Below, in pieces: positions 2 through 12,264 of a DNA stretch of 32,000 nt. Positions within the stretch are counted from its first letter, which is position 1, and every line of letters begins with the position of its first letter. The stretch lies in the NCBI RefSeq assembly GCF_016591975.1, contig NZ_AP024169.1, positions 3,777,295-3,809,294 of the forward strand. Reading direction: 5' to 3'. The notes under the pieces are model-generated. The model saw only the letters and a program-made list of their open reading frames with translations. It was not told the origin of the DNA and searched no databases. This DNA comes from Anaeromicropila herbilytica. Lineage in GTDB: Bacteria; Bacillota; Clostridia; Lachnospirales; Lachnospiraceae. The position numbers and the translations under genes are program-made.

Positions 2-2551
2 AATACTGAGATTGTGATACAGGTATCAAATTATTTATATGCATATAATGGAATCTTTTATCCAATTTACTTTGGTCCAGAAAAAGCAATAACTCATCAA
101 CGTATTTTAAGTGTACTTATTGATGGCTTTTTTATTATTGGCATGCTACTTATGTCTATCTACACTTTTGGAATTAGTTTTCAGAGAAAAAATAGAATTG
201 GATTACTTTTTTTCGCAGGATATTGCTTAGCTTCTGCTCTTTATAAGATGACATGTTCAGAAGTACTATTGAACTATTTATTTCCGAATATCTCGTTTAC
301 CTTTTGCTTTCAATTTCAAGCCTTCAGTATTCTAGCAGAATATTATCTTTTATTTTTATTTGCATATTATGCATTTAAAGTGCAATATAAAGGACTTAAA
401 AAGTTAGTTCACATCATAGCTTGTTTCTTCTTATGTTTAACACTTTTTACTAAATTTTATTTATGGAGTTATACATACATTCTCTTTTTTATAACTACCT
501 TATTGCTAATTATCTTAATAACTTATATCTTTTATAATCAGTTTCATATTGCTGTAATTGGAAAGACTCATTTGTATTTAGCAATGATCTGTTCCGTATT
601 ACTATTTATTGAATGCTTCTTTAATATTGTACTCGGTTTGGAATCTGACTATTTTCCTCCAATTGTACAGCCGATATTTGTTTTCGCTCTTTCTTTTTAT
701 ATGTCTGAAAATTATTCCGTTGCATTTGAGACAATTGAAACATTGAGTGCACGACTAACACAACTTGATAAGTTAAAAGATGACTTTTTAGCAAAGACTT
801 CACACGAATTAAAGACACCACTAAATGGTATTATTAATATATCTGAATCATTATTAGATGGTTCTGGTGGAACGTTAAACGAAGAACAATATGAAGATCT
901 ATCGCTCATTACTAATATAGGGAAACGCCTTTCCAATCTTGTATATGATATTTTAGATTATTCAAAACTTAAGAATGGTGCTCTCTCTCTTCACCTAACT
1001 ATTATTGATATCTACCCAGTAATCGACTCTACTCTAAATATCTTTCAATATCTAATAAAAGGGAAGATAATAGAATTTGATAACCAGGTGCCTTCCAATA
1101 CTTATTTTATCCTTGCAGACGAGAACCGATTTAAACAGATTGTTTTTAACCTTCTAGACAATGCCGTTAAGTTTACACCCAAAGGATCTATAACCATATC
1201 TGCATATTATGATAACTCAGAAGTATTTATAGCAGTCAAAGATACCGGAATCGGTATCCCAAGTTCTAAACTGGCAACTATATTTTATTCTTACGAGCAG
1301 CTTGAAATGAATGGTAACATATCAACTGGCGGTGTAGGTTTAGGACTCTCAATTACGAAACAATTAATTTCATTGCATAATGGTAGTATATTCGTAGAAT
1401 CAGATATAGGAAAAGGTAGTTGCTTTACCGTATCATTTCCTGCAAAAGCAAAGAATGAATTAACTCTAAAAGAAAAAGATGAGATCAATCCAAAAGTTGA
1501 TGATAATAATTTATCCAAAGAATATCATTTACCTTATTCAAAGCATATGAAAGGGAAAGCAAATATTCTTGTTGTCGATGATGAATATTCAAATCTTAAA
1601 TCCTTATTAAATGTACTTACCTTATGGAATTATAACGTAACCATAACGGATAATCCCAAAACAGCTCTTCAATTACTAATGAATAACCGGAGCTACGATC
1701 TTGTTATCTTAGATATTATGATGCCTTTTATGTCAGGATATGAAGTATGCAGACATTTAAGAATTAGATATAATTTTCTTGATCTTCCTATCCTAATACT
1801 CACAGCCAAGAATTCACCTATGGATATTCAAGCTGGATTTCATGCAGGAGCCAATGATTTTCTTGAAAAACCATTTGATTCAAAAGAGTTAGAATGTAGG
1901 GTAAATACTCTTATCCAACTAAAAAAATCAAAAGAATTATTGCTTGAGAGAGAAACTGCATTTTTACAGGCACAAATTAAACCACACTTTTTATTCAATG
2001 CATTAAACACCATCAACTCCTTTTGTTATAGCAATCCTGAGCAAGCTAGTAAGCTATTAATGGAACTTGGTGTATTCTTACGAGGTAGTTTTGATTTTAA
2101 AAGTACAGCAACTTATGTTACATTAGAAAAAGAACTTCGCTTAGTAAAGGCTTATGTTTCAATAGAAAAGGCACGATATGATAATAGATTGGAGATTGAT
2201 TATCAATACGATTCTTCCATTCTAAAGTACAGTATTCTTCCACTAACGATACAACCAATTGTTGAGAATTCCATCCGCCATGGTATTATGAAAAGAATTG
2301 GTGGTGGGCTTATTCAAGTCCGGATTACTACTGATCATGATGACATCTTTATTGAAGTATCTGATAATGGTATCGGAATGGATCAAACTATGATTTCTTC
2401 TCTACTAAGTGAAAAGCCAATTGGTGATGGTGTAGGCCTCTATAATATAAATTGTAGATTATTAAACTACTATAATACTTCTCTTAGAATTACAAGTAAT
2501 AAGGATCAGGGTACCCTTGTATCCTTTCACATACCCATGCAGATAAAATAA
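2..2551 (+). CDS. Hybrid sensor histidine kinase: 7TM sensor + HisKA/HATPase_c + receiver + second LytS/YesM-type His_kinase/HATPase core; probably 5'-partial
   Basis: About 7 hydrophobic helices in aa ~30-235 (7TMR-DISM-like). First kinase core: H-box 'SHELKTPL' (His codon 803-805) with N/G1/G2 boxes 'NLLDNAVKFT', 'DTGIGI', 'GGVGLGLSI'. Receiver: 'ILVVDDE...LVILDIMMP...ILTAK' (Asp codon 1712-1714). Second kinase core: 'QAQIKPHFLFNALNTI' (His codon 1985-1987) with 'ENSIRHG', 'DNGIGM', 'GVGLYNI'. The frame is open from nt 2, and the track's start at 14 is a GTG with no convincing RBS, so the true start is likely upstream of the window. Confidence 0.85.
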   Translation, partial: NTEIVIQVSNYLYAYNGIFYPIYFGPEKAITHQRILSVLIDGFFIIGMLLMSIYTFGISFQRKNRIGLLFFAGYCLASALYKMTCSEVLLNYLFPNISFTFCFQFQAFSILAEYYLLFLFAYYAFKVQYKGLKKLVHIIACFFLCLTLFTKFYLWSYTYILFFITTLLLIILITYIFYNQFHIAVIGKTHLYLAMICSVLLFIECFFNIVLGLESDYFPPIVQPIFVFALSFYMSENYSVAFETIETLSARLTQLDKLKDDFLAKTSHELKTPLNGIINISESLLDGSGGTLNEEQYEDLSLITNIGKRLSNLVYDILDYSKLKNGALSLHLTIIDIYPVIDSTLNIFQYLIKGKIIEFDNQVPSNTYFILADENRFKQIVFNLLDNAVKFTPKGSITISAYYDNSEVFIAVKDTGIGIPSSKLATIFYSYEQLEMNGNISTGGVGLGLSITKQLISLHNGSIFVESDIGKGSCFTVSFPAKAKNELTLKEKDEINPKVDDNNLSKEYHLPYSKHMKGKANILVVDDEYSNLKSLLNVLTLWNYNVTITDNPKTALQLLMNNRSYDLVILDIMMPFMSGYEVCRHLRIRYNFLDLPILILTAKNSPMDIQAGFHAGANDFLEKPFDSKELECRVNTLIQLKKSKELLLERETAFLQAQIKPHFLFNALNTINSFCYSNPEQASKLLMELGVFLRGSFDFKSTATYVTLEKELRLVKAYVSIEKARYDNRLEIDYQYDSSILKYSILPLTIQPIVENSIRHGIMKRIGGGLIQVRITTDHDDIFIEVSDNGIGMDQTMISSLLSEKPIGDGVGLYNINCRLLNYYNTSLRITSNKDQGTLVSFHIPMQIK

Positions 2552-2618
2552 AGATTCTTAAGAAGACTCATTAATGTTAAGATAACTTATTCCATTTTAC
2601 GATAGATAGGAGAATCCC

Positions 2619-3743
2619 ATGATAAAAGCAATTATCGTAGATAATGAAAAACCAGCAATACAAATATTAAAATTATTCTTAGAAAAGACAAATCAAATCG
2701 AAGTGATTGGTTGCTATTTAAACGCACCCAAAGCACTAGAAACTCTTATAACATTAGTGCCTGACGTTATTTTTCTTGATATTGATATGCCTCAAATGAA
2801 TGGCTTGGAGATGGCTGAAATCATTCAAAATCAAAATATTAATACAGAGATTGTATTTGTTACTGCATATAATCAATATGCACTTGATGCATTTCGTGTA
2901 AATGCTATTGACTATCTCTTAAAGCCACTCTCCATGGATGATATAGAAAAAACAGTAAAAAGGCTTAATAAAAGAATTATAACTACTCCATCTTTACCGA
3001 AAGTAAACAAAACGGCAAAAATTCATTGTTTTGGGAGACTCTTAGTGTATGGTTCTCCCGAAGATACCCCAATTAAGTGGAGAACTTCAAAAGCAGAGGA
3101 ATTATTTGCTTTTCTCTATCAAAACCGAGGCAATAGTGTACCTAAGACCGCAATCTGTAGTGCATTATGGAGTGATATTCCAGAGGATAAAGTAGATGTA
3201 TATCTCCACACTTCTATATATAAAATGAAAAAAGATCTACAAAGTTACCATATTCCTGTGGAGATAAAATTCAGTAATGGTTGTTATTATATGACGCTCC
3301 CTAATACATACAGTGATATAGAAGAATTTGATTCTATCATAGATTCTGATCTTCCTCTTGATTCTTCTACCCTCGAAAAATATGAGCGTGCGATCATTCT
3401 CTATAAAAATAATTATCTTGATAGCCATGAATACTTATGGTCTTTACCAACAAGAGAGCTTTATTATCAAAAATATCGTAACTTAATAAAACTTTTGGTA
3501 AATTATTATGTAAAAGAGAAAAATACAATAGCAATAGAGAAAATTATTAAACCATTATTAGAGAATTTTCCACTTGATGAATATGCTCATGAAACTTTAT
3601 TAAAAGTATATTATGTAAAAAAAGATCGTATTGCTTTTGTAACTCATTATAATCATATGCTTCGTTTGTATAAAAACAAATTAGGTATTACACCAAAACC
3701 TTCTATTGAAGCATTGTATAATAGTATTACAAAAAACACTTAA
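2619..3743 (+). CDS. Two-component response regulator, REC + SARP-like winged helix + BTAD (bacterial transcriptional activator domain)
   Basis: N-terminal receiver 'IIVDNE...VIFLDIDMPQMNG...VFVTAY...DYLLKP'. Middle 'KAEELFAFLYQNRG..VPKTAICSALW' looks like a winged-helix. The C-terminal helical-repeat region 'YERAIILYKNNYL...AHETLLKVYY...YNHMLRLYKNKLGITPKP' is typical of BTAD. RBS 'ataggaga' lies 6 nt before the ATG, 67 nt after the kinase stop. Confidence 0.8.
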   Translation: MIKAIIVDNEKPAIQILKLFLEKTNQIEVIGCYLNAPKALETLITLVPDVIFLDIDMPQMNGLEMAEIIQNQNINTEIVFVTAYNQYALDAFRVNAIDYLLKPLSMDDIEKTVKRLNKRIITTPSLPKVNKTAKIHCFGRLLVYGSPEDTPIKWRTSKAEELFAFLYQNRGNSVPKTAICSALWSDIPEDKVDVYLHTSIYKMKKDLQSYHIPVEIKFSNGCYYMTLPNTYSDIEEFDSIIDSDLPLDSSTLEKYERAIILYKNNYLDSHEYLWSLPTRELYYQKYRNLIKLLVNYYVKEKNTIAIEKIIKPLLENFPLDEYAHETLLKVYYVKKDRIAFVTHYNHMLRLYKNKLGITPKPSIEALYNSITKNT

Positions 3744-3848: not shown

Positions 3849-4586
3849 CTAATTGTTATGTTGAATATAATAATATAAATTTTCAACATATTGTTTTGCT
3901 TTCTCTTGGTCGGTTATCAGATCAAATGGATTATTTCCCGCTTCTATATACTGCTTAAAGAATGCTTTAATAACTTTATTTCTCTTTTCTCCACCTTCAA
4001 CATGATATTGGGCTCTAATTTGCTCAATCCTTTGTTTAATAACGCGATCAATGATTAGATCTTTATACCCAGTAATAATAATTGTAAATGAATCTCCTGT
4101 AAGAAATCTAAATTCTACACTATATACTCTTTGGTTTCCTTCTGACACACTTGCATAACAATAATATAATAAAAATTTAGGAATAAAATAGCCATTAATC
4201 TTATACCAATTTTCCGATTCCATAAAGCACTTATTCGGCAGATTAGATTCCGGTACACCCTTAAAATTTTGACTATTTATATGCTGTTTCAATACATTAT
4301 TAGGGATATACTGACTAATCCTTGGAACGCTTAACAATGGAGTTTTTATATATCTAATAAAGCTTGGAGACCATAACACAAGAATTATAACTATTACCAA
4401 TACACTTAAAAGTTCTTGTTGGTTTGATTTGATATCGATAGAATTTCCAGAAATATAATTGGAAACATAAACGATAATGTTATCTATTACATAAATTGCC
4501 AAGCACGAATATACCAAAAGACTTATAACTTTTTTTAAAGGATGTAGTTTTTTTAATTCGCATTCATTTACTGAATTATATGCCAT
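3849..4586 (-). CDS. Hypothetical membrane protein (two N-terminal TM helices + ~150-aa soluble domain); last gene of the toxin-like operon
   Basis: 245-aa ORF with strong RBS 'gaggaggaaac' upstream of the ATG. Hydrophobic segments are 'VISLLVYSCLAIYVIDNIIVYV' and 'LLSVLVIVIILVLWSP'. I recognise no family motif. Confidence 0.7.
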   Translation of the reverse strand: MAYNSVNECELKKLHPLKKVISLLVYSCLAIYVIDNIIVYVSNYISGNSIDIKSNQQELLSVLVIVIILVLWSPSFIRYIKTPLLSVPRISQYIPNNVLKQHINSQNFKGVPESNLPNKCFMESENWYKINGYFIPKFLLYYCYASVSEGNQRVYSVEFRFLTGDSFTIIITGYKDLIIDRVIKQRIEQIRAQYHVEGGEKRNKVIKAFFKQYIEAGNNPFDLITDQEKAKQYVENLYYYIQHNN

Positions 4587-4647
4587 CTTTTTAGTTTCCT
4601 CCTCTTTGTTCTCCTATCTTCTAATTTTTATTTATCCCTTTACCACT

Positions 4648-5100
4648 TTACTCTTCCCCTTTTTTCTCATATCCTACTTTAACTTGCATATAAGAAAAAC
4701 TATCATCACTAAAAATAACATGATACATAGGTGTAGTTTGATTTAAGGAAGACTGATTCATCAGTGTAAGTAGTGCTGAATATGCCAATTCTGTATCTTG
4801 CTCATAATCCTTCCATACAGTTGTAGACATCATATTCTCAACAGAATAATAAGAATGATAATACATAGTATCTGGCAGAGTGATATTTTCCTCTACTACT
4901 GGCATAAATAATTCAACTGACATAATCTCATCCATTGGAACGTTTTTCATTGAATAAAATAGTGGTCCATTTTTATGTAAATTTAATTTCTTTATTTCTG
5001 ATCCAAATTCATCTAATACTTCTTTCATATCATTATAATGAAAAGCGTAGTTTTTTGAAACAACATTGGTATAACGAATCGAATCTTTCAGATTAATCAT
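4648..5100 (-). CDS. Small soluble protein, paralogue of 5118-5561; possibly GyrI-like/DUF5085-like (candidate immunity protein)
   Basis: 150-aa ORF starting 17 nt after the upstream gene's stop. It shares motifs with its neighbour: 'NGPLFYSMKN' vs 'TGPMIYQMRN', and 'ELFMPV' vs 'TLFIPV'. The family assignment is from memory of size and pattern only. Confidence 0.7.
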   Translation of the reverse strand: MINLKDSIRYTNVVSKNYAFHYNDMKEVLDEFGSEIKKLNLHKNGPLFYSMKNVPMDEIMSVELFMPVVEENITLPDTMYYHSYYSVENMMSTTVWKDYEQDTELAYSALLTLMNQSSLNQTTPMYHVIFSDDSFSYMQVKVGYEKKGEE

Positions 5101-5117
5101 GTAGGTATCCTCATTTC

Positions 5118-5561
5118 TTACATCTTGATAATCGGTGCATAAATATCAACAATACTACCTCCAAACACTGGAAGATATATATTATAGAATGTTTCTTCAA
5201 GCTCCACACCAATCGATTGTGCTGTCATTTTTAATAATTCGTAGGAATCTTCAAAATCCTCATCCATATCAGAATGACGATAGGTTAATCCATCTTCGAA
5301 AGATAATGTATCCAAATAGAAGAATTTCTCATTTTCCTCCATATTAATCGGAGCATTCACAGGTATAAATAATGTAAATTCCTTCTTATCACTTTCCTTG
5401 ATATTCCTCATCTGATAAATCATTGGTCCTGTTGGATACAAACCATTTCTAATGATGGCATTACGTAATTCCTTTGATGCATTCATCCATTCATTTGATT
5501 CACATATTTCTTTTACGCTTATTACATGATGTAATATCAAAGAGCCTCTTTTAATCTTCAT
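5118..5561 (-). CDS. Small soluble protein, paralogue of 4648-5100 (candidate immunity protein)
   Basis: ORF 5118-5573. The first ATG (5573) is followed by 'ggaggtaatt' and then a second ATG (5561). The GGAGG is therefore better read as the RBS of the second ATG, giving 'MKIKRGS...'. Confidence 0.7.
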   Translation of the reverse strand: MKIKRGSLILHHVISVKEICESNEWMNASKELRNAIIRNGLYPTGPMIYQMRNIKESDKKEFTLFIPVNAPINMEENEKFFYLDTLSFEDGLTYRHSDMDEDFEDSYELLKMTAQSIGVELEETFYNIYLPVFGGSIVDIYAPIIKM

Positions 5562-5669
5562 AATTACCTCCATTTTGCAAATATTTCTAGAAGAATTTTA
5601 CAATTCATTAGAGCTTCTGTAAATCTATTCTATTAAATCTGTAATATATTTTCGTCTACTAACAATGTT

Positions 5670-6851
5670 CTAAAATATTCCACTTACGAAATTACATACA
5701 GAGTTATATCCGTTACTTAACCCCTCTTCTACTGCATCAACCGAGTTCTCAGCAAGCATTTTCACACCATCAACTAAACTATCACTTTGGTTATCTCCAT
5801 CAAAATCATATATCTCACAATTAATTGCCCAGTTAATTGCTGCTCCACTTGCTGCTCCAACAACTGTACCTACTGGAGGCACTATAAAGGAACCAATTGC
5901 TGCTCCTGCTGCTACTGCTCCTGCTCCTGTACCCAAATCTACCGCTGAATCTATAACAAATTTTTCTGTATTATCAGCGGAATATTCCCACTTTCCATCT
6001 TTATAAAAATTATCAACAAAATCACTACCTACGTCAAATGCAGTGGATGCTGCTCCTAAAAATTTTGCTGACTTTCCAAGCTTACCCAAGCCTTCATAAT
6101 CAGCTTTTTTAAATCCATCTGTTAATTCCTTAAATGTTAATCCATTCATCAGTTTATTTCCAAATATGTTCAATTTACTTTTTGATAAATTATCCATATA
6201 ATTACCCAACATTTTATAATCTACATTATCAAAGTAACGATTTTTTCCACGTGTAAATACATCGTTCCTTAAATCATATATATCTATCCCTCTATTTTTA
6301 AGTGTTCTCGTCAAATAATCTGTCCATGTAGTGGAACCACCGAGTAAATTGGTAAGACTATCACTTAATTCCCTGTTTGTCTTATCCGTTATTGCTTTGA
6401 TATATTTTACTCCATTGACTTCAAATGTTTCAAACCTTAAGCCACTACGAAGAATATCTAAGGCCTCTGCAAAGGATTTATCCTTAAATTGCCCAAAAGC
6501 ATTAAAGAAAAATTCAAAACCATCATTACCTTTTCCATTCTTCATTATATCATATATTTGTTTCCAGATTGGACTATATTGGGTTACAATGTCTTCTTCT
6601 GCTTCTTGATATTTGTTGATTGATTGCTTTAGAGTTTCTTTCATAGCATTCATACCTATCTGATATCGCTTCAGTTCATCTTCAATCTGCTTTAATTGCT
6701 CTCCTATACCACATTCAAAGCTGATAGATGAACGTATTCCACTTCTAACATCACCGACTCTTGTATGTAATTGTTCTAATGTCTTCTTATATTCATTTAG
6801 TGTATTAATTTCGACTACTAACTGTTTAATTTTAACTAACAGATCTTGCAC
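5670..6851 (-). CDS. Toxin-like protein: N-terminal helical hairpin (WXG100/LXG-like by appearance) + C-terminal glycine-zipper hydrophobic region
   Basis: 393-aa ORF with a GTG start preceded by 'aaggaggga'. The N-terminal ~95 aa are heptad-like and helical with a Gly-containing turn 'FECGIGEQ'. The C-terminal 'GTGAGAVAAGAAIGSFIVPPVGTVVGAASGAAINWAI' (about nt 5817-5954) has GxxxG repeats and is followed by an acidic tail. Confidence 0.75.
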   Translation of the reverse strand: MQDLLVKIKQLVVEINTLNEYKKTLEQLHTRVGDVRSGIRSSISFECGIGEQLKQIEDELKRYQIGMNAMKETLKQSINKYQEAEEDIVTQYSPIWKQIYDIMKNGKGNDGFEFFFNAFGQFKDKSFAEALDILRSGLRFETFEVNGVKYIKAITDKTNRELSDSLTNLLGGSTTWTDYLTRTLKNRGIDIYDLRNDVFTRGKNRYFDNVDYKMLGNYMDNLSKSKLNIFGNKLMNGLTFKELTDGFKKADYEGLGKLGKSAKFLGAASTAFDVGSDFVDNFYKDGKWEYSADNTEKFVIDSAVDLGTGAGAVAAGAAIGSFIVPPVGTVVGAASGAAINWAINCEIYDFDGDNQSDSLVDGVKMLAENSVDAVEEGLSNGYNSVCNFVSGIF

Positions 6852-6908: not shown

Positions 6909-6948
6909 TTCCTGACAGACGACATGTTTTCCTGACAGACAACATGTT
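6909..6948. repeat. Tandem direct repeat 2 x 20 bp (candidate operator)
   Basis: 'ttcctgacagacgacatgtt' (6909-6928) is immediately followed by 'ttcctgacagacaacatgtt' (6929-6948), with 1 mismatch. The pair lies 58-97 bp upstream of the GTG of the 5670-6851 gene, in the divergent intergenic region. Confidence 0.9.
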
Positions 6949-7121
6949 AAATACTTTTTTTGTATCTTTTAATACTATTTTAAAGCCATTTTATATCAGT
7001 GCTTGAACCTTTTACATTGTCGTAGTCATAACAAATCTGTGAATTAACTTATGATGTAAAATATATCTTAGTCCTATTCCAAGCCATCTCTTTGTTGAGT
7101 TTCATATCAACATTTCATTGT

Positions 7122-7150
7122 TTTACACTGTTCTACTTCTATGGTATGCT
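7122..7150 (+). promoter_or_regulatory. Putative sigma-A promoter for the XRE-FlhA_C-like gene
   Basis: 'tttaca' (7122-7127), 17-nt spacer, 'tatgct' (7145-7150) preceded by 'tgg' (extended -10 TGn). It lies about 77 nt upstream of the ATG. Confidence 0.35.
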
Positions 7151-7226
7151 ATCTACATGGAATTCCAAAATAATGAAAACAAGATATCTTATACAATAAG
7201 AAAATAACAATAAAGGAGTCACTGAC

Positions 7227-8054
7227 ATGAATATTAATAATTTTGCAGAAAGACTTATCATAGCTAGAAAAGAAAAAGGATATACTCAAGAAGAATTAGC
7301 TTTACGCTTGGGTGTTACCCCTCAGGCAATTTCAAAATGGGAGCGAAATAATAGCTATCCAGATATAGAATTACTTTGCTCTATTGCAAATGTTCTAGAT
7401 TCTTCTTTGGATTATCTATTAAATATCCAGTTAAAATCCTCTCAAATGACAGATGATATTAATGAACTTAAGAAACAGCAGTTACTTCAAAGTGCTTTAT
7501 CAGACCCTCTTCTTCTAGAAATAGGTACCTCCTTAGTTGAATTGATGATTGAGGAAAATCAAAATCAATTCAAACATCTCCATACCGTTAAGGAACATCT
7601 AGCTGAACAATATGGCATAATACTTCCACTTGTTCGTATTCGCGATGTTGATAGCATCGGTGAATATGAATATCGATTTTATAGTTATGATAAATTAATT
7701 GGTTCTGGTACTTTAACACCTTTTATAAATTATGAAGAAGAAAAAGAAGATGCCATTCGAGTAATAATGGAACACTTTGAAAAAGTTGCTTATGAGAACT
7801 ATTCTAAGATTATTAATAAAGAAATAGTAAGTAACTTAATTACAAGCCTTAGGTTGGACTATCCAGCAGTAGTCGAAGGGGTTATACCAGAAAAGATCTC
7901 TCTCTTAACTCTTGTTCAAATACTTAGTAAATTAGTGGAGAACCGAACTTCCATTCGTAACCTTATTAAAATTATTGAGATTATTGAGAATGAAATAGAT
8001 AAAACAAGCGATTATGATGCCATTGTCTCGATTATTGAAGATTACCTCAAATAA
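7227..8054 (+). CDS. XRE-family HTH fused to an FlhA/FHIPEP cytoplasmic-domain-like module
   Basis: N-terminus 'RLIIARKEKGYTQEELALRLGVTPQAISKWERNNSYPDIELLCSIANVLDSSLDYLL' is a classic HTH_3. The C-terminal ~180 aa (nt ~7503-8051) contain 'LLLEIGTSLVEL...ILPLVRIRD...EYEYRF' and 'YPAVVEGVIPEKISLLTLVQILSKLVENRTSIRNLIKIIEII'. These parallel the recalled FlhA C-domain motifs 'IEFEFGYGLIPL...VIPVVRIRDN...NEYRLKI' and 'YPVLVEEVTPNPLSVGDIQKVLAKLLKEKVSIRNLVTIFETL'. RBS 'aaaggag'. Confidence 0.8.
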   Translation: MNINNFAERLIIARKEKGYTQEELALRLGVTPQAISKWERNNSYPDIELLCSIANVLDSSLDYLLNIQLKSSQMTDDINELKKQQLLQSALSDPLLLEIGTSLVELMIEENQNQFKHLHTVKEHLAEQYGIILPLVRIRDVDSIGEYEYRFYSYDKLIGSGTLTPFINYEEEKEDAIRVIMEHFEKVAYENYSKIINKEIVSNLITSLRLDYPAVVEGVIPEKISLLTLVQILSKLVENRTSIRNLIKIIEIIENEIDKTSDYDAIVSIIEDYLK

Positions 8055-8060
8055 GAACTG

Positions 8061-8096
8061 AAAATAAGCTAGTGTTTTTCACTAGCTTATTTATCT
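8061..8096. terminator. Bidirectional terminator between convergent genes
   Basis: Stem 'ataagctagtg' / 'cactagcttat' with loop 'ttttt'. It has A-rich 5' and T-rich 3' flanks. Confidence 0.75.
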
Positions 8097-8126
8097 TCAT
8101 AATTTTATCTATTTAATTCTACTACT

Positions 8127-9920
8127 CTAAAAACCATTCAAGTTAAGTAGCTTTATTTTTGAAGCATAATCAACAAAAGAAGTATTGACATCAACCCTTC
8201 CTGAGATTCCATTTACCGAACCCGAAGAACTATATTGCCACAATCCAACAGCTCCACTATAGGTAATAGAAGATCCCCACTGTGCTAGCCAGTGATCATA
8301 ATCTTCTAGTTTGGTATCATCCAGTTTGGTTGTAAACCATGTTTTATTGGTATAGATAACAGGATAATATCCTGCCTCTTTTAGTTTATCTAAATATACA
8401 AGAGCAATTTTAGTTAATGTATCCTTACTAAGTTTACTTTGAGAAGAATCTTCAATATCAACGCATACTGGATATTCAAATGTTTTTCCTTCTAATTGTT
8501 TGATAAAAAATTCTACCTCTGTGGTTGCTTTCGCCACAGTAGTAGCATAACTGTAATGATAAGCTCCTACCGCAATTCCATTATCCTTAGCCCCTTGATA
8601 ATTTTTCTCAAACATAGGATCAACGCTACTACTTCCATAGGAAGCTCTAAGCATTGCAAATTCAACTCCGTCTTCCTCTACTGCCTCCCAATCAATGTTA
8701 CCTTGCCATTTTGATACATCAATTCCTTTAATCTCAGCATTCTTAACCGTCACCTTACATGTTGCAGTTTTCTCCCCATCATCCGTTGTTACATAAATAA
8801 TAGCGGAACCTGTAGCAACGGCTGTGATCTTACCTTTACTACTTACTGTAGCAACCGTCTTATCTGAAGACTTCCAAGTCACAGACTTATTTGTAGCATT
8901 TTGAGGCGTTATTGATGCTTTTAAAGTATATGTCTCTCCTAATGCTAGTGTATTTGAAGTCTTATTTAGTGATACAGACTGCACATCCGCTTGTGATATC
9001 TTTTTACTAATGGAAGAGGAATAGCTACTATATACTTTCTTTTGATCTACTTTACGATACGCCCTAACTTTATAATAATAAGTTGTTCCAGATGTTAACT
9101 CTGAATCATCATAACTAGTTGTTGATACCGTTGCTAACAGCTCATAAGTACCTGCATTTTGCGTTGCTCGATATAATTGATATCCACTTGCTCCCGATGT
9201 ACTTTTCCAACTTAATTGTATGCTACTTTCGGTTGAGGATTGAACACTTAAAGAAGATGGCGCTGATAATGAGGGTTTCGTACATACCACTACAGAATAA
9301 TTACTATATACACTTGCTTTTCCAACGGTTTTACATGCTCTCACTTTGTAGTAGTAGGTTGTTCCTGTGCTTACTGTTTTGTCCTTATAACTCTTTCCCT
9401 TTATAGTAGCAATAGATTTATATGTACCAGTTTTACTTGTACTACGAAATAACTGATACCTAGTGGCTCCAGCTACTCCTCCCCAACTGATATTAACACT
9501 ATCATAAGAAGATGTTGTTTTTACTAAAGTCGGTGATGAAGGAATTGGTTTTGCCTTTGTAGCTGTAGAAAATGAACTATAAGTCATTTTACTTGAAGTA
9601 ATTTTATATGCTTTTATTTTGTAATAGTATGTTGTTCCTGTGGTTAATCCTGTATTTTTATATGTATGAGCAGTAGTAGTCATAATCAGTTTATAAGTCC
9701 CCTTACTCGATGTAGCTCTATAAACTTTGTATCCACTTACCCCAGATACCGTGTTCCAACTGATATAGGAACTATTATAAGAGTAAGATACAGCTTTCAC
9801 ACTTCCTGGCTTAGATGGAGCTTTCGTTGCTGCGCTAGCAGACATCTCCGGTAATACGAGTCCTCCAGTAATAATTAGAAACAATAGAATGATACTAAAA
9901 TTATTTTTTATTCCTTTCAT
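8127..9920 (-). CDS. Secreted cell-wall hydrolase: signal peptide + 3 FN3-like repeats + Big_2 + GH25 muramidase (lysozyme)
   Basis: Signal peptide 'MKGIKNNFSIILLFLIITGGLVLPEMSASA'. Three ~90-aa repeats each end in 'GTTYYYK(I/V)(K/R)A'. Big_2 region: 'VQSVSLNKTSNTLALGETYTLKASITPQNATNKSVTWKSSDKTVATV'. GH25 region: 'GIDVSKWQGNIDWEAVEEDGVEFAMLRASYG...CVDIED'. Confidence 0.9.
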   Translation of the reverse strand: MKGIKNNFSIILLFLIITGGLVLPEMSASAATKAPSKPGSVKAVSYSYNSSYISWNTVSGVSGYKVYRATSSKGTYKLIMTTTAHTYKNTGLTTGTTYYYKIKAYKITSSKMTYSSFSTATKAKPIPSSPTLVKTTSSYDSVNISWGGVAGATRYQLFRSTSKTGTYKSIATIKGKSYKDKTVSTGTTYYYKVRACKTVGKASVYSNYSVVVCTKPSLSAPSSLSVQSSTESSIQLSWKSTSGASGYQLYRATQNAGTYELLATVSTTSYDDSELTSGTTYYYKVRAYRKVDQKKVYSSYSSSISKKISQADVQSVSLNKTSNTLALGETYTLKASITPQNATNKSVTWKSSDKTVATVSSKGKITAVATGSAIIYVTTDDGEKTATCKVTVKNAEIKGIDVSKWQGNIDWEAVEEDGVEFAMLRASYGSSSVDPMFEKNYQGAKDNGIAVGAYHYSYATTVAKATTEVEFFIKQLEGKTFEYPVCVDIEDSSQSKLSKDTLTKIALVYLDKLKEAGYYPVIYTNKTWFTTKLDDTKLEDYDHWLAQWGSSITYSGAVGLWQYSSSGSVNGISGRVDVNTSFVDYASKIKLLNLNGF

Positions 9921-10242: not shown

Positions 10243-12264
10243 TTATTCTGCTATAATCTGGCTCTCATGTTTTGCAAAGAAGTCAATTCTTGGTTCCAAG
10301 AATTTCAACTCATGGTGCTCTACATCCTTTGTAAAGAAATCCATTGTCTCGAAGATATATTCCCAATTCCAGATCTTATCACTTACATTTAGATAATCAC
10401 GAATCATCTCACATCCTTCTGGGGCAATAGGATGAATGAATGCTGTTGCAGTTCGAACAGCATGGAAGGAGTCAATTAACACTTGCTTTCTAAGAGCATC
10501 ATCTTCCTCTTTCTCAGCTATTCTCATATTATTTACCCAATATTTATTAGCATTACGAAGATAAGTATCTAACAAATAAGTAATCATATGAAACTCGTGA
10601 TTATACATTTTTAGTTCATAATCAAGAATAGCTTCTTTAGCTTCTGATAGCACAGAATCACTTATGGAACCTTCTGGAATCTTAGAGTCATAATATTTTT
10701 GTGCTGTATAGAAGCAAGAACGAACCAAGCGATTGAATACATTGGTTAATAAATTGCCATCTTTTAGAACTGTATCTACCCCTTCTCTTTCCTCTTCTTT
10801 CATATAGACTTGTGGCTTAAAGCTTACGCTTTTATTCGATAATCCAAGACTTAGGAAATGAATTCTTAATTGTTCCTTTGTATAGTAGTTCAGTAGTTCT
10901 TTTGCCATTGGAGGCTTAATCTCACTGCTACTACTTGCTTTCTTATCCATAAAAAGTATATGATTGTTAGCAATTAGGTGAGTTGATCTTAACTTACCCT
11001 CTTCTGGATCAATCGTATAATCTTTTCCCTGCAAAGCCATAAATAAAGCCATTTGCGCAACTCCATAGAAATAGATATTATCCTCACCTATGAATTGATA
11101 TACCTTTGCATCTTTGGACTTCCACCAGTTTTCCCATTCTGTTTTATCCTTACCAATTGATTCTAGATAAGTTTTGGTAAATGATATTGGAGCCCATAAG
11201 GATTCTGGCCATACCCAGAAAGTTAGATTCGATTCACCTTCAATTTCTGGTACTTTCACTCCCCATTCAATATTACCTGTCAAACGGAATGGAACTAAAG
11301 TCTTACCTGTTCGATAGTTAATTCCCTCTTTGGTTAAGATGTTACAAGCTTCTTCCCTGTCTGTCAACTTTTCAAACAAGATCGTTATTGATGCTTTTTT
11401 CTCTTCTTCAAGTAGCTTATGTTTAGGAAGAGCATCTATGATATCTTTCTTCTCTTCATAGTAAGATTTCTTAATATATATGATAGGTTTTTTTAAGAAT
11501 TCTTCCATGGTATTCAATTGATATTTTCTTGAGTTTGTATTTGTTCTAAAATAGGATACCAATTCTCTCAGCGGTTCAAAGAATTCTTCTAATTTGAAAT
11601 ACCAATTGGATACTTCTCTTAATTCGGGTTTCTTACTAGATAAAGCACTAATTGGGTTAATTAATTCACTTGGCATATACTGATGTCCTAAAGAACACTC
11701 ATCTGCATAACCTTTCTCTGATTGACATCCTTCAATTGGACATTTACCAACTACCTGCCTTCCATTTAGGAACACCTTATACTCTGGATCATAGAATTGA
11801 GGTGTCGATAGTTTTTCAAGATATCCATTATGATAAAGTGATTCAAAAATATCCTTTGATACTTCTTCATGAATCTCACTTGCTCTATCTAGAGCACTTG
11901 CTCCATATAGGTTTAAACTAATATCATAATCTTCTAATGTCTGTTTTTGCTTTTCATGATTACCATTCACATAATCATGAATACTTCCGTCAAATTCACC
12001 ATTCTCTACAAGTTTACGATAACTCTCTAAGATTGGTGATCCATAGCAGTCCGTGCCAGATACAAAGATTACATTCTCTTCACCAATTCGATCCCTTAAG
12101 AACCTTGCAAAGGTATCTGCATGAACGAATACTCCACCAACATGACCAAAATGTAATTCTTTATTACCATATGGCATACCAGCTGTTATCACTGCTCTTT
12201 TAGGAAATTCAGGTCTGACTTTTTCCTTTTTGGGTCTTCTATCAATTTTATTATTGTCTTCCAT
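10243..12264 (-). CDS. metG: Methionyl-tRNA synthetase family class I aaRS (divergent; no C-terminal tRNA-binding domain)
   Basis: HIGH region: 'MPYGNKELHFGHVGG', then 'SGTDCYGSPI'. 'QFYDPEYKVFLNGRQVVGKCPIEGCQSEKGYADECSLGHQYMPSELINP' parallels recalled E. coli MetRS '[48 protein letters not shown]'. 'YQFIGEDNIYFYG' parallels 'YHFIGKDIVYFH'. The KMSKS position reads 'KKASSSS'. A T-box leader lies upstream. Confidence 0.85.
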   Translation of the reverse strand: MEDNNKIDRRPKKEKVRPEFPKRAVITAGMPYGNKELHFGHVGGVFVHADTFARFLRDRIGEENVIFVSGTDCYGSPILESYRKLVENGEFDGSIHDYVNGNHEKQKQTLEDYDISLNLYGASALDRASEIHEEVSKDIFESLYHNGYLEKLSTPQFYDPEYKVFLNGRQVVGKCPIEGCQSEKGYADECSLGHQYMPSELINPISALSSKKPELREVSNWYFKLEEFFEPLRELVSYFRTNTNSRKYQLNTMEEFLKKPIIYIKKSYYEEKKDIIDALPKHKLLEEEKKASITILFEKLTDREEACNILTKEGINYRTGKTLVPFRLTGNIEWGVKVPEIEGESNLTFWVWPESLWAPISFTKTYLESIGKDKTEWENWWKSKDAKVYQFIGEDNIYFYGVAQMALFMALQGKDYTIDPEEGKLRSTHLIANNHILFMDKKASSSSEIKPPMAKELLNYYTKEQLRIHFLSLGLSNKSVSFKPQVYMKEEEREGVDTVLKDGNLLTNVFNRLVRSCFYTAQKYYDSKIPEGSISDSVLSEAKEAILDYELKMYNHEFHMITYLLDTYLRNANKYWVNNMRIAEKEEDDALRKQVLIDSFHAVRTATAFIHPIAPEGCEMIRDYLNVSDKIWNWEYIFETMDFFTKDVEHHELKFLEPRIDFFAKHESQIIAE

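Follow-up and report, generated by a model that had tools for sequence, protein, structure and literature searches.

FlhA is a protein of the flagellar export gate, and to our knowledge its cytoplasmic domain (FlhA_C) is known solely from the ring that it forms on the cytoplasmic side of type III export gates. Transcription is coupled to type III export by FlgM/sigma-28, by FliT acting on FlhDC, by ExsA-ExsD-ExsC-ExsE and by MxiE-IpgC, and in XRE/Cro-CI repressors the classical autoregulatory layout places inverted half-sites next to the -35 of the repressor's own promoter. Control of flagellar genes is poorly understood in Clostridia, and the flagellins of Lachnospiraceae are prominent host immune antigens. 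We analysed a 32,000-nucleotide stretch of Anaeromicropila herbilytica DNA (contig NZ_AP024169.1, positions 3,777,295 to 3,809,294; hereafter the window), in which a plus-strand coding sequence at 7227..8054 (stop codon included; ATG start as given in the list of open reading frames, ORFs) encodes a protein of 275 residues. An original prediction, made from the letters alone, had described the product as a transcription-factor helix-turn-helix (HTH) fused to a fragment of FlhA. We refer to it below as the HTH-FlhA_C protein, with only subdomains D1 and D3 of FlhA_C matched in full. No description of such a fusion family was found in the full-text literature searched, which agrees with the remark in that prediction that no characterised soluble DNA-binding version of FlhA_C was known; nor do we know of a regulator of this kind described in Lachnospiraceae.

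For the comparison we used the published boundaries of FlhA: linker (FlhA_L) 328-361, D1 362-434 plus 484-503, D2 435-483, D3 504-583 and D4 584-682 (PMC5916509). In the FlhA_C nonamer the ring is built chiefly by D3-D3 and D1-D3 contacts, and each linker reaches over to D1/D3 of the next subunit, with binding mediated by R388/R391/K392/K393, F400/L401 and W354 (PMC5916509). Chaperone-substrate complexes dock in a dimple at the D1/D2 interface, with D456, F459 and T490 (PMC5916509).

An XRE DNA-binding domain fused to a FlhA-like module

The first 65 or so residues had been read as an XRE HTH, and profile searches agree: Pfam HTH_3 (PF01381), whose cutoff is 23 bits, scores 62.3 bits over residues 13-64 (E=4.4e-17). 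AlphaFold2, run without templates, gave a model with a mean predicted local distance difference test (pLDDT) of 90.1. The XRE/Cro-CI five-helix DNA-binding domain of this model occupies residues 6-65 (7242..7421, plus strand), with helices at 6-17, 21-28, 32-39, 47-56 and 61-65 and a pLDDT of about 90 or more, and its sequence matches the solved structures 7T8I (E=1e-6), P22 c2 (5e-6) and SinR (4e-5). On these matches we place the protein in the XRE/HTH_3 regulator class.

The remainder was said to carry two blocks resembling the cytoplasmic domain of FlhA/FHIPEP. Pfam FHIPEP (PF00771) indeed matches in two stretches, with a score of 78.9 bits where the gathering cutoff is 29.1 (E=4.1e-22); the best stretch covers profile positions 452-548 of 657, and the match is confined to the cytoplasmic part. 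The NCBIfam model for FlhA, TIGR01398, gives E=5.9e-22 and 77.7 bits, far below its equivalog cutoff of 772.1, and TIGR01399 gives 33.5 bits against a cutoff of 692. We read the passing FHIPEP score, obtained at the level of the domain, as homology of a part and not as membership in the export gate. In a phmmer search of the PDB the best match was B. subtilis FlhA_C (3MIX, E=2e-13), in blocks at residues 77-162 and 176-267. These are the two blocks of the original prediction, and the FlhA strings that it quoted are literally present in 3MIX. With a profile of 55 family members the match to 3MIX rises to E=1e-31 and becomes a single continuous alignment. A Foldseek search of the model against the PDB pointed the same way, the top 50 matches all being FlhA_C or SctV_C (best 3MIX, E=1.2e-10, probability 1.00, approximately 220 aligned columns). 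The similarity on which the original prediction hinged is therefore found by profile and by predicted structure alike. No transmembrane segment was found in the 275 residues, where the Kyte-Doolittle 19-residue mean peaks at 1.45; this and the restriction of the Pfam match to the cytoplasmic part uphold the earlier statement that the protein is not an export gate.

Matches to flagellar FlhA are far better than those to the injectisome homologue SctV, both with the family profile (1e-31 to 5e-22 for FlhA against 3e-13 to 2e-7 for SctV) and with the window protein in NCBIfam (6e-22 for TIGR01398 against 2e-8 for hrcV), so the C-terminal module is, on sequence evidence, derived from flagellar FlhA and not from SctV.

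Subdomains of FlhA matched by the module

The HTH is followed by a flexible hinge at residues 66-75 (7422..7451, plus strand, as are all features of the protein), pLDDT falling below 50 at residues 70-77. Next comes a helix that corresponds to the C-terminal portion of the linker in FlhA, at residues 76-93 (7452..7505; Salmonella ~350-361), recognised by profile alignment and modelled as a helix at 76-90; the profile-to-PDB alignment begins at Salmonella residue 350, and L87 takes the position of W354. The first segment of D1, residues 94-165 (7506..7721; Salmonella 362-434), aligns to 3MIX and to Salmonella FlhA, with a GxxLV version of GYXLI and the string PLVRIRD. At residues 166-175 (7722..7751) a short loop stands in place of about 49 residues of D2, a deletion scar marked by an alignment gap and a dip in pLDDT. 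The second segment of D1 follows at residues 176-195 (7752..7811; Salmonella 484-503), and then D3 at residues 196-275 (7812..8051; Salmonella 504 to ~583) with its SIRNLIKIIE block. Residues 176-270 align to chain positions 161-255 of Salmonella FlhA_C, that is, to residues 484-578, and the protein terminates where D4 (Salmonella 584-682) would start.

The earlier suggestion that the short segment between the two blocks reflects loss of a subdomain proved right. When the family profile is aligned to full-length Salmonella FlhA, the match runs from residue 350 to residue 578 and is interrupted once, by a gap of ~46 residues that coincides with D2 (435-483) and recurs in every alignment to FlhA. 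The absence of D4 was not part of that suggestion and was found here by alignment. Judging from these alignments, the module consists of D1 and D3 in full, preceded by the last part of the linker, and these are the ring-building core of FlhA_C; D2 is cleanly excised, taking half of the chaperone dock with it, and D4 is absent. The original prediction had also described FlhA_C as the platform for chaperone-substrate complexes, and for FlhA itself the docking role stands (PMC5916509). It does not carry over easily to the short form: because D2 is deleted, chaperone sensing by it is unlikely, D456 and F459 having no counterpart in the window protein and the T490 position not being conserved.

Conservation among the 55 family sequences falls largely on residues of FlhA itself. 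The equivalents of G368, P403 and D409 (G100, P134 and D140) are invariant, the equivalent of R391 is Arg in 54 and that of L401 Leu in 51. R137 is also invariant and aligns with Salmonella H406, while the invariant E251 corresponds, as we read the alignment, to Salmonella E559. The position of W354 holds Leu, Phe or Met in 37 of the 55. As to a role of the SIRNL..I.E block in the ring interface, PMC8213127 gives no residue-level interface.

A subfamily of 305-334 residues carries an insert exactly at the position of D2. Its members read 'KDPVW-GIDGVW', 'IEPLY-GLNGVW' or 'TEPVW-NLSGVW', aligned with 'VEPAF-GLPAKW' of a true FlhA (locus L029), and the resulting motif [DE]-P-x-[FYW]-G-x4-W matches D456-P457-A458-F459-G460...W465 of Salmonella, numbered through the family alignment. 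In the AlphaFold model of one long member (P0060) pLDDT is 80 overall and 43-61 over insert residues 170-208. A likely history is that FlhA_C was captured behind an HTH, that D4 was then lost, and that D2 was lost afterwards in most lineages, that of the window included. For the subfamily with the D2-like insert, chaperone sensing is possible.

A conserved block with predicted promoter and operator upstream of the gene

We aligned 220 nucleotides upstream of 22 non-redundant family genes and obtained a shared, gap-free core with the consensus GTTGAG-N7-TNAAC-N5-GTTGTTTTAC-N13-TATGnTAnnAT. Within it, TTTAC(A/T), a 17-nucleotide spacer and TGnTAnnAT constitute a predicted promoter, in agreement with an independent promoter scan of the window. 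That scan predicted a sigma-A-type promoter at 7122..7150 (plus strand; a consensus match only), with -35 TTTACA at 7122-7127, a 17-nucleotide spacer and a TG-extended -10 TATGCT at 7145-7150, and the register of its -35 and -10 is also kept in the upstream alignment of the orthologues.

Three GTTG-type half-sites (forward, inverted, forward) lie directly upstream of the -35 and abut it. Box 1 of the predicted operator, GTTGAG, is a forward half-site at 7094..7099 (plus strand, as are boxes 2 and 3), approximately -62..-57 from the predicted start; it is exact in 14 of the 22 loci, and six of the other eight have GTT[GT]A[GAT]. Box 2, TCAAC at 7107..7111, is the inverted half-site, and its consensus T.AAC stands at a fixed distance in all 22. 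Box 3 together with the start of the -35 is ATTGTTTTAC at 7117..7126 (family consensus GTTGTTTTAC). Box 2 thus forms GTTGA-N8-TCAAC with box 1 and CAAC-N5-(G/A)TTG with box 3, the inner inverted repeat CAAC-N5-GTTG being centred near -43 from the start inferred from the position of the -10. The string TTGTTTTAC is present in 21 of the 22 loci and in the two divergent loci L150 and L151. When three divergent members (~35% identity) are added to the 22, the block is found in 24 of 25 loci (22/22 aligned and 2/3 divergent).

The 20-nucleotide core occurs once per locus, always at this site, and nowhere else in ~300 kb of flanks. In the 32 kb of the window, its match at 7107-7126 is the sole one with a single mismatch; matches with two mismatches at 9573 and 27416 both lie inside coding regions and were treated as chance. 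A search for a regulon in metagenomes with TNAACNNNNNGTTGTTTTAC gave at least 120 matches; among the matches listed none had box 1 or a family gene downstream, and we regard them as chance matches. In the protein, recognition-helix residues Q33, A34, S36, W38, E39 and R40 are invariant in the 55 sequences, although the coding sequences are only 36-50% identical to the window protein. The simplest reading of a conserved and unique block next to an invariant recognition helix, against such diverged coding sequence, is that the block is the protein's own operator; we hold it probable that the HTH-FlhA_C protein binds there, and predict that it autoregulates its gene. As to the sign of regulation, the position of the block would fit activation of the type exerted by lambda cI at OR2 as well as repression.

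A ribosome-binding site, AAAGGAG, is read from the sequence at 7212..7218 (plus strand), 8 nucleotides 5' of the ATG. Downstream, RNA folding detects an intrinsic-terminator-like hairpin at 8062..8101 (plus strand) with a perfect stem of 13 bp, a loop of 5 nucleotides and a T-rich tract (-17.3 kcal/mol; z=-6.1 against shuffles), located between the gene and a convergent gene for a secreted GH25 muramidase on its 3' side. A consensus terminator scan overlooked this hairpin because its stem is A+T-rich. With a predicted promoter, a ribosome-binding site and a terminator-like hairpin of its own, the gene looks monocistronic.

A family under purifying selection

A protein search returned 765 relatives, among them an A. 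herbilytica protein with 100% identity to the window protein, and statements on architecture cover the best 120 of these. All 120 combine HTH_3 and FHIPEP and measure 240-330 residues, apart from one fragment of 169, so that the survey of HTH_3+FHIPEP architectures proposed in the original prediction finds the fusion throughout. An exhaustive search of representatives clustered at 50% identity gave ~70 full-length clusters among the best 150 matches. Relatives are named Anaerocolumna, Mobilitalea, Herbinix, Lachnoclostridium phytofermentans and Epulopiscium, with further clusters from 'Lachnospiraceae bacterium' metagenome-assembled genomes (MAGs) and Clostridium sp. KNHs205. The hosts that bear a name all fall within the Lachnospiraceae group of Clostridia, and the named isolates carrying the family are described as motile. 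A scan of GTDB species genomes with an alignment of eight sequences and a single peptide pattern, a partial taxonomic survey that returned 21 loci, yielded 19 more intact family genes (Anaerosporobacter mobilis among them). It also brought up a split copy in a MAG, a copy truncated where its contig stops and a genuine FlhA of 681 residues at 24% identity.

The split gene (L026:5619-6426, in the MAG of Lachnoclostridium sp. UBA6558) consists of two overlapping ORFs of 138 and 151 residues; no other copy is disrupted except by the end of its contig, and the split marks a frameshift pseudogene or else an error in assembling the MAG. A number of predicted proteins of 700-4162 residues (P0121, P0149, P0150 and others) match the query in 8-29 separate stretches, mostly through the HTH, P0149 (2332 residues) with a full-length copy at 2023-2283; they are probably run-on gene calls or tandem arrays of XRE genes in metagenome assemblies.

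For four pairs with unsaturated synonymous divergence (dS), Nei-Gojobori ratios of nonsynonymous to synonymous divergence (dN/dS) were 0.08-0.19 in the FlhA-like half and 0-0.15 in the HTH. The FlhA-like half is under purifying selection, and orthologues keep the fusion; the possibility of a chimeric pseudogene, which the original prediction had itself raised, is thereby rejected. Databases name these proteins 'FHIPEP family type III secretion protein' (NCBI pipeline), 'flagellar biosynthesis component FlhA' or 'helix-turn-helix domain-containing protein', and the naming as a secretion protein is a systematic misannotation of the family.

Genomic context and surroundings of the gene

No flagellar or type III secretion system neighbours were found within 6-8 kb at any of the 25 independent loci, nor were flagellar genes found in the 32-kb window. 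All-against-all clustering of the ORFs around 22 loci recovered only two clade-specific synteny blocks, both of housekeeping genes, and the three further divergent loci are likewise devoid of flagellar neighbours. Eight loci of the Herbinix/Mobilitalea type (L005, L012-L018) share PSP1, methyltransferases, an AbrB-like gene, two Gate-domain genes, the family gene, a LigB/Memo/AMMECR1 gene and its radical-SAM partner. Six loci of the Anaerocolumna type have a UvrD-family helicase gene downstream, and the remaining loci differ again. This is the pattern of a gene that stands alone and is passed on vertically. Since flanking genes differ between clades, no conserved operon partner can be proposed; the HTH_3 gene directly upstream of the L. 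phytofermentans orthologue was considered as a divergent paralogue and rejected, only its HTH aligning.

The Herbinix/Mobilitalea block also contains TatD and resembles the yaaT-yabB-yabC-abrB-metS-yabD region of B. subtilis. In the window, a 673-residue ORF at 10243-12264, read from sequence as a methionyl-tRNA synthetase, lies 2 kb from the HTH-FlhA_C gene, and may be a remnant of an ancestral yaaT-metS-like position.

According to a 2026 preprint, the host genome encodes flagellar genes, and A. herbilytica is among a few Bacillota with archaellum genes and an F1-type chemosensory system besides them (bioRxiv 10.64898/2026.05.11.724246). It may thus possess two motility systems, a circumstance relevant to any motility-linked regulator.

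On the 5' side of the HTH-FlhA_C gene, on the opposite strand, lie a gene for a 393-residue protein and two DUF5085 genes. They belong to an apparent minus-strand operon at 3849-6851, headed by the gene for the 393-residue protein, after which come the two DUF5085 genes (matches at E=1e-29 and 2e-11) and an ORF of 245 residues that has no annotation. The 393-residue protein has an N-terminal coiled-coil (weak DUF5344 match, E=0.026) and a C-terminal hydrophobic region resembling a glycine zipper, AVDLGTGAGAVAAGAAIGSF...; the operon looks like one for an LXG-like membrane toxin of type VII secretion together with genes for immunity or accessory functions, though no family passed threshold. In the divergent intergenic region of 375 nucleotides, ~60 nucleotides upstream of the 393-residue gene, a perfect-register tandem direct repeat of 20 nucleotides is present at 6909-6948 (TTCCTGACAGACGACATGTT / TTCCTGACAGACAACATGTT). 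It contains the short palindrome ACATGT and may bind another regulator, e.g. the REC-BTAD protein at 2619-3743. Further upstream, the region 14-3743 contains a hybrid sensor kinase of 845 residues with two kinase modules (7TMR-DISM, HisKA/HATPase and REC, then a LytS-type His_kinase and a second HATPase), which adjoins a REC + Trans_reg_C + BTAD response regulator; this double-kinase architecture is unusual.

Candidate mechanisms

The reading that we favour, with somewhat better than even confidence, is a stand-alone, autoregulated XRE regulator in which a FlhA ring-core module mediates either self-association or docking to the export gate. The protein would be a soluble one-component XRE/Cro-CI transcription factor whose N-terminal five-helix HTH contacts DNA, and whose C-terminal 200 residues derive from FlhA_C of a flagellar, Firmicute-type FlhA, cut down to the end of the linker, D1 and D3. 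Transcription would start at the gene's own predicted sigma-A-type promoter and end at its own terminator-like hairpin, and the protein would bind the three-box site GTTGAG-N7-TNAAC-N5-GTTGTTTTAC abutting the -35 and autoregulate. The FlhA-derived module would act as an association or sensor domain through contacts of the FlhA linker-D1-D3 type, in one of two ways: it may assemble several HTHs on the multi-box operator, or it may dock on the FlhA ring of the host, and DNA binding would then serve as a readout of the gate's state. Whether the module makes ring-type protein contacts is, in our estimate from the conserved residues, evenly balanced, and any connection of the protein with flagella is a tentative proposal that we would sooner doubt than assert.

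Several observations weigh against this reading. At the equivalents of R391 and L401 the window protein itself departs from the Arg and Leu of the family, with K122 and I132 in their place, and the acidic linker positions E351 and D356, which in FlhA take part in binding the neighbour, are not conserved among the 55 sequences, so that the ring-type contact may be altered. The divergent member L152 does not have the operator motif, and a second copy of the motif was found neither in the window nor in the flanks of the loci nor among the metagenome matches listed; the upstream block could also be the site of a different, clade-wide regulator. With flagellar neighbours at none of the 25 loci, nothing but homology ties the HTH-FlhA_C protein to flagella.

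These points fall in part on the side of a pure exaptation, in which the D1-D3 core of FlhA would be a mere oligomerisation scaffold for an XRE regulator, like the C-terminal domains of SinR or lambda cI, with another regulon and no tie to flagella. The housekeeping synteny found where flagellar neighbours might have stood, the deletion of the chaperone-binding D2 and the loss of conservation at E351 and D356 all agree with it, and a multi-box operator fits a need for higher-order self-assembly. Against it count that the invariant and near-invariant residues are FlhA's own signature residues, the R391 equivalent among them, that the long subfamily keeps a dimple motif of the D456-P-x-F459-G...W465 type for which a scaffold has no need, and that all named hosts belong to the Lachnospiraceae group of Clostridia, with motile isolates; we regard this exaptation as a possible account, though not the one we would choose. 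A stronger form of the docking proposal, a soluble mimic of an export-gate subunit that docks on or intercalates into the FlhA_C ring, or builds a ring of its own, so that the state of the gate sequesters or releases the transcription factor while the long subfamily also senses chaperones, seems to us unlikely. Less likely still is the sensor implied by the original prediction, in which the module would bind free export chaperones or their complexes (FliS-flagellin, FliT-FliD, FlgN-FlgK) and gauge the backlog of late substrates. FlhA_C does dock such complexes (PMC5916509), and the long subfamily keeps [DE]-P-x-[FYW]-G-x4-W, but D2 is gone from the window protein and from most of the family together with D456 and F459, the T490 position is not conserved, and even in the long form the D2-like insert is modelled with low confidence.

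Two further identities can be set aside, each with next to no probability left. The split gene of L026 would suit a chimeric pseudogene, or a decaying flhA fragment behind an HTH gene, yet that split may be an assembly error, and the fusion is intact in every other full-length locus and in the best 120 of the 765 relatives; with its FlhA-like half under selection, a confident fold, and a promoter, ribosome-binding site and terminator that are conserved or present, the gene is not a remnant, and selection and conservation refute that reading. A genuine type III secretion (FHIPEP) export gate, as the NCBI name has it, could appeal to the passed Pfam gathering score. It is refuted by the size of 275 residues with no membrane domain, by a match confined to the cytoplasmic part of the profile, by a TIGR01398 score far below the equivalog cutoff, by the absence of D2 and D4 and by a location outside any flagellar or secretion gene cluster.

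Comparison with known systems

The preferred reading, an autoregulated XRE factor with a FlhA ring-core module, would make of this family a one-component regulator whose effector domain, borrowed from a secretion machine, is unprecedented. Its recognition corrects the name 'FHIPEP family type III secretion protein', and the protein offers a natural minimal D1-D3 construct whose conserved residues show which surfaces of FlhA matter outside export. It is also a candidate for tying transcription to the flagellar export gate in Clostridia, and the predicted operator makes discovery of its regulon straightforward by whole-genome scanning.

Set beside FlhA_C (B. subtilis 3MIX, Salmonella 3A5I/6AI0), the module shows homology, by sequence as well as by fold, in D1, D3 and the last part of the linker, and the family keeps a GxxL[VI] version of GYXLI, the P-x-V-R-I-R-D string, the R391 and L401 equivalents and SIRNL..I.E. 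It differs in having no membrane domain, D2 or D4, in its fusion to a DNA-binding domain and in its place outside any flagellar operon, and the protein is soluble and probably associated with the nucleoid rather than with the export gate. With the XRE/Cro-CI regulators (SinR, the phage 434 and P22 c2 repressors, lambda cI, ImmR of ICEBs1) it shares HTH_3 and a predicted promoter of its own with inverted GTTG-type half-sites at the -35, whereas its C-terminal domain is unrelated to theirs and its predicted operator consists of three half-sites instead of a simple palindrome. The likeness to FlgM/sigma-28, FliT-FlhDC, the Exs proteins and MxiE-IpgC is conceptual: in each of them transcription reads the state of a type III export machine, which would be the most interesting role for the HTH-FlhA_C protein to play. 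There is no sequence relationship, and those systems work through secreted anti-factors or freed chaperones, while in this family the DNA-binding domain is joined to a part of the gate itself; if the gate-subunit mimicry outlined above were true, it would be a previously undescribed coupling of gene expression to type III secretion.

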